A stretch of DNA of 64,000 nucleotides, from NCBI GenBank assembly GCA_022340345.1, contig JAJDOE010000033.1, positions 9,122-73,121 on the forward strand, read 5' to 3'. The notes under the pieces are model-generated. The model was not told the DNA's origin and ran no database searches. It worked only from the letters and a program-made list of their open reading frames with translations. The translations under genes were made by a program, and so were the position numbers. Shown here piece after piece: positions 57,960 through 59,174 of this stretch. How positions within the stretch are numbered: position 1 is the first letter of the stretch; each line of letters starts with the position of its first letter. The stretch comes from Gammaproteobacteria bacterium. GTDB taxonomy: Bacteria > Pseudomonadota > Gammaproteobacteria > HyVt-429.

Positions 57960-58190
57960 GATTCAGCGCGCCGGGCGATCGATGGCATCAGGTTGCTGAC
58001 GCAATTGCGTCACCAGCTCCGTTGCCGCCGGCTGGCCGGCCGTGGCCGCCTCCAGGGGCGGCAACCGTTTCACGCGGTGTTGCGAGCTGGTCGCGGCGGG
58101 TCTTCGCCAGACCAATAGCAGCACCAGGGCCTCGGCCAGGGCCACCACTACCGCGTTGCCGAAAGACAGGGGTCCCAACCCGTTCTCACC
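57960..58190 (-). pseudogene. degenerate partial duplicate of the upstream HAMP-like membrane-protein gene (5' fragment)
   Basis: About 80 nt (58100-58180) are ~93% identical to 58960-59040 of the intact gene, with weaker homology continuing to ~57960; translates to MGPLSFGNAVVVALAEALVLLLVWR... then diverges. Confidence 0.45.
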
Positions 58191-58227
58191 GGCTGGAGGA
58201 TAGCCGGCTCACAACAAGGCCCCGCCG

Positions 58228-58662
58228 CTAGCGGCAGGCGGGCGGGCGGTACTTTTGCTCTACCGTGCCACCGCTGCAGTCCCAGGTTACTGCACCGGCG
58301 GCATTCGCCGTGGGATCGAGCAGCACGGTATTGTTCGCGCCCAGGGCGGGAATGTTGTAGCTGATCTGCACACTGCCGCCGGCGGCCTGGATGGCGATGT
58401 CCGAGACGTTTTCACCGGCATAGCTGGCGGGCAGTCCCAGGCTGGCCTGGGTGTTGCTGTTGGGCCAGGCGCCGTTCTCCCGGTAGAAATCCATCACCGC
58501 GTGCTTGAAGGGACCGACGAGTCCCAGGCCCTCGGAAATCTTCGCCCGGGTCTTGGAGTCGATGTACAAGGGAATCGCCAGCAGCAGCAGAATGCTGACG
58601 ACCGCCATAACGATCGTGAGTTCCAGCAGCGTGAAACCGCCCTGCCGGTTCCCGCGGCTCAC
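58228..58662 (-). CDS. type IV pilin (PilA/PilE-like major pilin)
   Basis: Prepilin leader MSRGNRQGG|FTLLELTIVMAVVSILLLLAIP with Glu+5, C-terminal disulfide pair (C...C); 144 aa. Confidence 0.85.
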   Translation of the reverse strand: MSRGNRQGGFTLLELTIVMAVVSILLLLAIPLYIDSKTRAKISEGLGLVGPFKHAVMDFYRENGAWPNSNTQASLGLPASYAGENVSDIAIQAAGGSVQISYNIPALGANNTVLLDPTANAAGAVTWDCSGGTVEQKYRPPACR

Positions 58663-59174
58663 GGACCCCGCTCCTGGTCCGGGCGGCGATCGAATTGGTC
58701 CAGCTCCTTTCGCAGCCTGGCTACCAGCTCCGCGGTAGCGGACTGGTCGGCGGTGGCGGTCTCCAGCGCGGCGACCATCTCCCGCAGCTGGGCGAGTTCG
58801 TCGCGGCGCACTTTCGCGAGGTGATTCACCGCGTCCGCCAGATCGTGGAAAAAATCCCGGCCGCGCAGGTTCACCTGAACCGACAGGTCACCGTCGGCGA
58901 GTTGGGCGAGGGCCCGTTTGACCCGATGTATCGGTCCGGCCACCCGGTGACTGGTATGCACGGCGGTTCGCCAGACCAGCAGCAGCACCAGGGCCTCGGT
59001 CAGGGCGACCACTACCGCGTTGCCGAAAGACAGCGGTCCCAGCCCCAGCGGGCTTGCGGGCAGGAAACCGGTCAACAGCACCAGGTTGACCAGGATCACC
59101 GTGGCACCGGTGGCGCCCAGCGCCATGCGCAGCTGGAAGCCCGGTTCGATGATCAACTGACGGCGTTTTTCCAC
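58659..59174 (-). CDS. small inner-membrane protein with two TM helices and a HAMP-like/coiled-coil cytoplasmic domain
   Basis: 171 aa; TM1/TM2 then RVAGPIHRVKRALAQLADGDLSVQVNLRGRDFFHDLADAVNHLAKV (HAMP-like amphipathic helices) and a coiled coil; stop overlaps the pilin ATG (ATGA). Confidence 0.65.
   Translation of the reverse strand: MEKRRQLIIEPGFQLRMALGATGATVILVNLVLLTGFLPASPLGLGPLSFGNAVVVALTEALVLLLVWRTAVHTSHRVAGPIHRVKRALAQLADGDLSVQVNLRGRDFFHDLADAVNHLAKVRRDELAQLREMVAALETATADQSATAELVARLRKELDQFDRRPDQERGP

Follow-up and report, generated by a model that had tools for sequence, protein, structure and literature searches.

The stretch of DNA analyzed here, the window, comprises 64,000 nucleotides (nt) of contig JAJDOE010000033.1 (positions 9,122 to 73,121, forward strand) from the metagenome-assembled genome (MAG) of a gammaproteobacterium. 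On its minus strand the window carries a gene for a small membrane protein with a HAMP domain—the partner—followed directly by a gene for a type IVa major-type pilin and then by a short open reading frame (ORF), the relic, which is probably left over from a second partner gene. We consider this locus, on balance, to be one case of a widespread, undescribed partner–pilin two-gene module that is fused into a single gene in some lineages; this explanation, taken whole and with the mechanism proposed below, falls in our judgment just on the probable side. All coordinates are positions in the 64-kb window, and partner, pilin, and relic all lie on the minus strand, where each of the features noted in the initial annotation of this DNA is indeed present. 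The features are collected in Table 1.

Table 1. Features of the partner–pilin locus and its immediate surroundings (aa, amino acids; TM2, second transmembrane helix).
Feature	Positions	Strand	Basis or remark
Partner gene	58659..59174	-	171 aa, GTG start with GGAG before the start codon (ORF list)
Predicted type IVa major-type pilin gene	58228..58662	-	144 aa, GTG start (ORF list; Pfam)
Probable relic of second partner copy, 71-codon ORF, TTG start	57963..58178	-	BLASTP/tblastn, translation
Direct repeat copy A, inside relic	58103..58181		79 nt, 92% identity to 58967-59045
Direct repeat copy B, TM2-coding part of full partner gene	58967..59045		Repeat search
Second homology block, older	58012..58055		44 nt, 77% identity to 58723-58766 (C-terminal coil region)
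Terminator-like hairpin over pilin stop codon	58221..58238	-	Consensus match only
Divergent upstream region, AT-rich, with palindromes CAATATATATTG and CCCCAAGATATTGGGG	59175..59326		Presumed operon promoter region
Cupin gene (dTDP-4-dehydrorhamnose 3,5-epimerase family), convergent	57410..57949	+	Fixed right-hand flank, outside the module
Sigma54-like string TGGTAGCCAGGCTGCG	58711..58726	-	Rejected as promoter candidate

The partner and pilin genes are interlocked: the TGA stop of the former and the GTG start of the latter overlap as GTGA at 58662-58659. The initial annotation was right about the overlap but had read it as ATGA. This GTG is the sole start codon in the pilin frame; 8 nt before it, within the 3' end of the partner gene, stands an AGGAG. 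The accompanying statement that the pilin has no free-standing promoter region holds; the layout leaves the pilin no room for a promoter of its own, and the gene is predicted to be translationally coupled to the partner.

Judged by its sequence, the pilin is an ordinary type IVa major-type pilin. The protein matches the full length of the Pfam Pilin profile (PF00114, 6e-19) and the N_methyl profile (1.3e-7), and its closest solved structure in a phmmer search of the PDB is Neisseria gonorrhoeae PilE (1AY2, 1e-14). Residue 10 of the query aligns with mature residue 1 (Phe1) of PilE, so that the leader should be MSRGNRQGG and the class III signal MSRGNRQGG/FTLLE (the slash marks the cleavage site), in which positions -1, +1, and +5 are Gly, Phe, and Glu, respectively. 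The modelled fold aligns with 1AY2 in Foldseek with a TM-score of 0.71 over 155 columns, and a C-terminal Cys pair is found in ...WDCSGGTVEQKYRPPACR. A tblastn search of the 64-kb window with the pilin returned the pilin itself as the sole pilin-like sequence, and no silent copy.

The partner is the less familiar of the two proteins. Pfam HAMP (PF00672) is matched at residues 75-120 with 32.7 bits, vs. a gathering score of 25, and the AlphaFold2 (AF2) model has helices at residues 11-36, 50-93, 110-139, and 144-162. We read the first two as transmembrane (TM) helices, the second continuing into the first HAMP helix. The predicted architecture is thus an N-terminal RR..FQ.R motif, TM1 (with Asn30), a loop of ~13 aa, TM2 (with Glu60), the HAMP domain, and a coiled coil of ~50 aa—in agreement with the earlier description of a 171-residue protein with two TM helices, HAMP-like helices, and a coiled coil. 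HAMP domains dimerize into a parallel four-helix bundle (the AF2 model here is of a single chain) and are recognized by a Pro in the first helix, a Gly-containing connector, and an acidic start of the second helix. In the partner the motif reads SHRVAGP...GDL...LR..D...N, and the hallmark residues AGP79-81, G95-D96-L97, R104, D107, and N117 vary little or not at all in alignments of 37 and 78 sequences.

What follows the HAMP domain is short: the chain ends ~50 aa beyond it, and the Pfam and NCBIfam searches gave nothing but HAMP matches and no output domain. In particular, no MCPsignal match was found in Pfam, and the chemoreceptor models of NCBIfam reach the HAMP region only, far below their cut-offs; likewise, Pfam gave no HisKA/DHp or HATPase_c match, and the NCBIfam kinase models touch only the HAMP region. 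The name given to the protein by the Joint Genome Institute (JGI), 'methyl-accepting chemotaxis protein' (MCP), has no domain support, with matches confined to the HAMP region; the NCBI record (MCG6871194.1, from an 86-kb contig of a Gammaproteobacteria MAG) reads 'HAMP domain-containing protein'. The predicted topology is a cytoplasmic N-terminus, two TM helices, and a cytoplasmic HAMP domain and coil. It accords with the natural fusions described below, which would be workable only if the C-terminus of the partner lay in the cytoplasm, on the side of the pilin leader; two TM helices after a cytoplasmic N-terminus bring the C-terminus back to that side.

The partner belongs to a coherent, as yet unnamed protein family without a dedicated Pfam or NCBIfam model. 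An exhaustive phmmer search of 1.84 billion representatives (E <= 1e-10) returned 100 representative clusters, nearly all of 160-190 aa and matching end-to-end; the best of them, P0002, has 61% identity to the partner and the remaining clusters 25-37%. Across 78 aligned rows, at least 90% conservation is seen at R4, Q14, N30, E60, AGP79-81, G95, L97, R104, D107, and N117. The family can be described by a length of ~165-180 aa, RR..FQ.R, the TM residues Asn30 and Glu60, SHR[IV]AGP, GDL, LR..D, N117, and a C-terminal coil; the partner of the window has all of the conserved family residues. A single peptide pattern from the first HAMP helix yielded at least 525 relatives on metagenome contigs. 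Other routes added little: a word-indexed search with the partner recovered nothing beyond a 99% identical JGI protein on contig L001, whose DNA is identical to the window and therefore carries no comparative information, and a scan of a genome collection gave only an unrelated HAMP match in a Christensenellales MAG.

Public annotation calls the protein 'methyl-accepting chemotaxis protein' or 'HAMP domain-containing protein', and our literature search found no description of a HAMP–pilin pair; one apparent match, on Snodgrassella, proved irrelevant. The initial annotation had placed the partner outside the usual pil accessory genes, which the HAMP-only domain matches and the literature search bear out. 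Its authoring model had also raised the prospect that the partner family is a known conserved accessory factor of type IV pili; conserved the family is, but not known as such, and the conserved module and its fusions had been missed.

Linkage to pilins recurs well beyond the window. Among stand-alone family members whose genomic context was looked up, five of six are followed immediately by a PF00114 pilin gene in the same orientation (P0153, P0163, P0162, P0166, and P0005), and the flanking genes are entirely different in each; P0005, from the complete genome of Ca. Reidiella endopervernicosa, is the sole named-genome context. In a metagenome census of 80 loci plus look-ups, the start region of a pilin gene lies no more than a few tens of nt from the partner stop in 33 loci. 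The 42 informative loci with a score of 50 bits or more against the window protein comprise 29 with a pilin just after the partner stop, nine from one subclade, and four 'other'. The intergenic gaps, as read from the locus sequences, are about 4-30 nt, which makes a separate pilin promoter impossible. In a neighbor-joining tree, pilin-linked and fused members fall on all major branches, with the nine-member subclade nested among them; pilin linkage thus looks ancestral for the close family. The module is found mostly in uncultured marine and sediment bacteria, with named carriers that include relatives of sulfur-oxidizing symbionts (Ca. Reidiella endopervernicosa and a Thiolapillus MAG).

In some lineages the two genes have become one. 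Of eight long representative matches, seven consist of a partner region followed by N_methyl and Pilin in one ORF (clusters P0004, P0013, P0021, P0044, P0051, P0072, and P0117); a variable linker joins the halves, and the cleavage site G/FTL[IL]E is intact. One fusion, P0004, is identical on five contigs from at least three samples, and another, P0051, was deposited from the Thiolapillus MAG. These recurrences argue that the natural fusions are real.

Several further features of the family loci deserve mention in their own right. Locus L094 (6001-7945) has two pilin-encoding genes, the fusion P0044 (345 aa) and, 470 nt further downstream, a stand-alone one of 145 aa. Many cassette pilins (L010, L022, L027, L029, and others) seem to have leaders unusually long for type IVa, 10-19 aa from the first in-frame ATG; an example from L022 is MTLSGKQANMDIAMHRNKG/FTLIE. 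The nine loci of the nested subclade (L016, L021, L024, L033, L036, L037, L039, L043, and L044) encode a protein of 110-116 aa with an N-terminal TM helix (MNFLLTLFFTF...) about 40-90 nt past the partner stop, and the longer of these loci have a membrane protein of 340-380 aa after the small TM protein.

The polar residues within the TM helices offer a clue to function. Among pilin-linked members, N30 is present in 27 of 30 and E60 in 26 of 30, and both are kept in the nested non-pilin subclade (9/9); distant non-pilin members have each residue in only 4 of 28, with hydrophobic residues instead, while the HAMP residues are kept in every class. This is the pattern expected if the TM pair recognizes a membrane-embedded partner. 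Moreover, with a loop of ~13 aa between the helices, any sensing must occur within the membrane.

From these observations we infer that the partner is dedicated to its own pilin as an inner-membrane binder or sensor. The TM pair would bind the hydrophobic N-terminal helix of the pilin as long as the pilin resides in the inner membrane, similarly to what is reported for the kinase PilS, and the HAMP domain and coil would turn pilin occupancy into a signal or into hold-and-release—making the partner a holdase, a gate, or a sensor-adaptor of the membrane pool. Partner and pilin would be made in roughly equal amounts; in the fusions, prepilin peptidase would part the halves at the retained G/F site. 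As a tentative extension, one that we think more likely wrong than right, the family could represent a new class of pilin-specific partner, made 1:1 with its pilin or as a cleavable two-TM HAMP leader of ~180-210 aa, that reads or gates the pilin pool through Asn/Glu contacts.

Known systems provide partial parallels. The TM segments of PilS are reported to contact pilin directly and thereby sense the membrane pilin pool (PMC6058289; PMC11841053, citing Kilmury & Burrows 2016). By analogy, the partner would likewise be an inner-membrane protein with a proposed intramembrane pilin contact. Unlike PilS, which has six TM segments and a histidine-kinase output via PilR and sigma54, the partner combines two TM helices with a HAMP domain and a coil and lacks a kinase domain; it is also co-translated with or fused to its pilin, and no sigma54 promoter was found at the locus. 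A second parallel is with TfpX, TfpY, and TfpZ of P. aeruginosa and others, likewise small membrane proteins whose genes share a cassette with that of a particular major pilin. For TfpY an interaction with pilin is probable, and the protein is required for optimal assembly; TfpY-like proteins have three TM segments and a periplasmic C-terminal globular domain and are encoded downstream of the pilin behind a terminator (PMC11841053). In contrast to TfpX, TfpY, and TfpZ, the partner is encoded upstream of the pilin and has two TM helices, with its bulk (HAMP and coil) predicted to be cytoplasmic.

Parallels of overall plan can be drawn with other HAMP proteins. In HAMP-only receptors of the Af1503 type, a HAMP domain comes after two TM helices, and a kinase or chemoreceptor signaling domain is absent; Af1503 carries a sizeable extracytoplasmic domain and is not known to be linked to a pilin. 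The partner shares this two-TM–HAMP plan without an output domain, but has a loop of only ~13 aa and is linked to a pilin. PilJ of the Pil-Chp system is a HAMP-containing chemoreceptor with periplasmic and signaling domains that is reported to interact with PilA. Both PilJ and the partner are thus HAMP membrane proteins with a link to the pilus or pilin; PilJ, however, is a full chemoreceptor, and the partner is not.

The fusions also lend themselves to a different explanation, which we consider unlikely, if still worth serious attention: the partner may be a detached pro-domain or presentation factor, a long prepilin leader that delivers the pilin to prepilin peptidase or to the assembly platform and is released on cleavage. 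The halves would merely be split into two coupled genes in the window, and the role would be one of processing or insertion, not sensing. Seven fusion clusters with a G/F motif behind a variable linker, one of them identical across several samples, would fit this explanation, as would the tight gene coupling across the family, including the GTGA overlap of the window, and the implied 1:1 stoichiometry. Against it, HAMP is a signal-conversion module whose conservation is hard to explain in a passive leader, ordinary type IVa pilins require no such factor, and the closest relative, on contig L092, has kept the partner without a pilin. The binder or sensor is our preferred reading of the partner.

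Downstream of the pilin, the 71-codon ORF is probably what remains of an old duplicate of the partner gene, with TM1 and the HAMP domain gone. BLASTP aligns its 71-aa product with partner residues 45-163 (2e-8), with 51 gapped positions covering HAMP, and tblastn of the partner against the window matches residues 32-163 to 58217-57975 (E = 1e-7), which confirms the degenerate partial copy described in the initial annotation. Partner residues 78-82 and 88-133, that is, the HAMP domain, are missing; TM2 with its conserved Glu and the C-terminal coil are retained, and an in-frame TGA stands just upstream of the TTG start. The similarity first described as ~80 nt at ~93% corresponds to the 79-nt direct repeats (92% identity), whose two copies flank the pilin gene. 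Repeat spacings of 864 vs. 711 nt differ by 153 nt, or 51 codons, so the relic copy is in frame overall. The stop codons of the relic (57963-57965) and of the convergent cupin gene (57947-57949) are 13 nt apart. JGI calls a 61-aa gene at the relic, and the NCBI accession series has a gap at MCG6871192.

The two copies differ unevenly along their length. In the TM2 block (78 nt), partner and relic are 90% identical, with a synonymous divergence (dS) of 0.26 and a nonsynonymous divergence (dN) of 0.05; in the C-terminal block (90 nt), identity is 62%, dS about 1.7, and dN 0.33. The dN/dS ratio is about 0.27 overall and about 0.19 in each block. This pattern suggests that the copies are old and have evolved as coding sequence for most of that time; the C-terminal part of the relic is about as diverged from the partner as is the L092 orthologue. 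Between the window and L092 partner genes, the TM2 codons have 61% nucleotide identity, the same as the rest of the gene, so constraint does not account for the 90-92% patch shared by partner and relic. The patch would instead reflect recent gene conversion or a mosaic junction.

One may ask whether the relic is still a functional micro-protein, with one TM helix bearing the conserved Glu and a coiled tail, which, lacking a HAMP domain, might compete with the full partner or modulate it. Its ORF is unbroken, the net deletion preserves the frame, each block has a dN/dS of about 0.19, and the Glu has been retained; additionally, a gene was called here by JGI and, to judge from the accession gap, by NCBI. 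The position behind a hairpin after the pilin is also that of pilin accessory genes, a layout known for pilA (PMC11841053). On the other side, the only start is a TTG with no clear ribosome-binding site, and every frame is open in this GC-rich region, so that the intact ORF is weak evidence; the low dN/dS may be inherited from a long full-length phase combined with constraint on the active copy. The family hidden Markov model no longer picks up the relic, no relic-like element is present in L092, and no fetched relative locus has a second partner copy beside a pilin. We regard a functional relic as improbable.

The history of the site can be followed in the closest partner relative, P0002 on contig L092 (58-61% identity). 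L092 shares the upstream region, the partner, and the cupin gene with the window: the partner is followed after 21 nt by the convergent cupin orthologue (75% identical), with no pilin and no relic. With the same flanks around a site free of pilin and relic, this comparison indicates that recombination at the present site either brought the pilin in or removed it. Past recombination, as proposed in the initial annotation, is thus upheld by a relative in synteny; the tandem duplication of a whole partner–pilin cassette that it also proposed is possible but not shown, with no trace of a second pilin in the 64-kb window and no fetched relative locus having two partner copies beside a pilin (the two double-match loci, L052 and L079, are not pilin-linked). 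Possibly, an old second partner copy downstream of the pilin decayed in the window and disappeared along with the pilin in L092; alternatively, an independent loss in L092 may have been accompanied by partial duplication in the window.

Several points weigh against the module and the function that we propose for it. The partner of L092 has no adjacent pilin, the nested subclade has other downstream genes, and the distant members occur in other contexts. The 29 pilin-linked loci among the 42 informative ones are not phylogenetically independent, as several come from the same samples and all were found via one peptide pattern. The functional reading rests on gene neighborhood, fusion, and conservation; the partner has no recognizable output domain to point to a downstream target, and AF2 modelling of the concatenated partner and pilin from 78 alignment rows, fusions included, reached a predicted local distance difference test score (pLDDT) of 88.1 and a predicted template modelling score (pTM) of 0.63, which are confidence scores only (single-sequence modelling of the concatenated pair gave a pLDDT of 44). 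Finally, the history of the site rests on two genomes, which are compatible with more than one ancestral arrangement behind the relic.

Such points could be taken to mean that the partner is a generic small HAMP signaling protein without a pilin-specific role, brought next to the pilin by shared regulation or hitch-hiking. This would agree with the pilin-less L092, with the nine loci of one subclade and most distant members having other downstream genes, and with public annotation as only HAMP or 'MCP'. We find it quite improbable, however: in-frame fusions occur on several deep branches, pilin linkage holds at 25-37% identity amid unrelated neighbors, and the distribution of the polar TM residues N30 and E60 follows the pilin-linked members.

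Least of all does the locus look like a site of pilin antigenic or phase variation, as the initial annotation had suggested by likeness, with cassette copies recombining to change or switch the pilin: 79-nt direct repeats (92% identity) do stand on both sides of the pilin, the identity pattern does suggest gene conversion between two partner copies, and the same site in L092 does lack the pilin, but the 64 kb hold one pilin-like sequence and no silent copy, the repeated segment belongs to the partner gene and not to the pilin, recombination between the repeats would give a HAMP-less partner and no pilin—a one-way loss, of which L092, with its HAMP domain intact, is not the simple product—and no switching element such as an invertase or a guanine quadruplex was seen, which leaves this explanation with very little credibility. 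The Neisseria pilE/pilS system likewise has repeats beside an expressed pilin gene and signs of gene conversion; its repeats, however, are silent pilin copies that donate pilin sequence, whereas the repeat of the window is a fragment of an accessory gene, with no silent pilin.

The operon promoter presumably lies in the AT-rich divergent region upstream of the partner. A sigma70-like scan found nothing upstream of the partner, and no GG-N10-GC site lies within 245 nt upstream of it. The weak sigma54-like element that had been proposed ahead of the pilin (TGGTAGCCAGGCTGCG, 58726-58711) exists as a string, but does not survive as a promoter: it scores 7/12 vs. TGGCACG-N4-TTGCW, a score equaled or bettered by 599 of 1547 GG-N10-GC sites in the window (39%), and TGG-N9-TGC occurs 125 times in the window, all of which is chance level. 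Good sigma54-type matches, TGGCAGCATTGTTGC and TGGAAGCCTTGTTGC, do occur ~70 nt upstream of the partner in the marine loci L012 and L013, and none comparable is found in the window.

The divergent region is the only AT-rich island near the locus and contains a perfect 12-bp palindrome, CAATATATATTG (59251-59262), unique in the window; a second palindrome, CCCCAAGATATTGGGG (59281-59296), shares the half-site CCCAATAT with it. About 46 nt with both CCCAATAT palindromes are nearly identical in L092 (L092 1-50). The palindromes look like a candidate operator for a dimeric regulator of divergent promoters. At the other end of the operon, a second hairpin (CCGGCU..AGCCGG) lies beyond the terminator-like one, which folds no more stably than shuffled sequence (z = -0.40), and an Rfam scan of 57000-60000 gave no meaningful match. 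The G+C content of the cassette, 64-68%, lies inside the range of its flanks (about 59-72%) and hence gives no sign of recent foreign origin.

Neighboring genes appear to be independent of the module. The cupin gene overlaps a GT2 glycosyltransferase gene by 4 nt (the pair spans 56475-57949), and the same GT2–cupin pair occurs without a pilin cassette in distant relatives (L095 4048-5513, L096 243-1738); a synteny search via cupin homologues likewise gave only more distant GT2–cupin pairs, all without the cassette. Recurring in this way, the two would not be pilin-modification genes tied to the present locus, and the pair is best seen as a separate conserved unit. Divergent from the partner, a 57-aa ORF (59327-59500, plus strand) has a signal-peptide-like N-terminus (MHRIRWWFLLALLVLAIQPG...) and a C-terminal Cys; it has no Pfam match, and JGI also calls a gene there on L001. 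Further away, a 66-nt tandem repeat at 63642-63798 (2.4 copies, 97% matches) has an internal inverted repeat in each unit (TTGAAAATCG..CGATTTTCAA) and gives repeated peptide segments in ORFs on both strands.

To our knowledge, PilS is the one documented sensor of the inner-membrane pilin pool, and how that pool is held, counted, and released is only partly understood. A HAMP protein genetically tied to its pilin would provide a simple two-protein system for the study of pilin recognition within the membrane. The fusions pose a question of their own—whether prepilin peptidase can process a two-TM leader of ~200 aa. Both the relic and the relative without a pilin indicate, in turn, that pilin genes turn over by recombination at the present site. 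If the proposed reading is true, the module would represent a kinase-independent route of pilin sensing or control, together with a prepilin architecture not described before.

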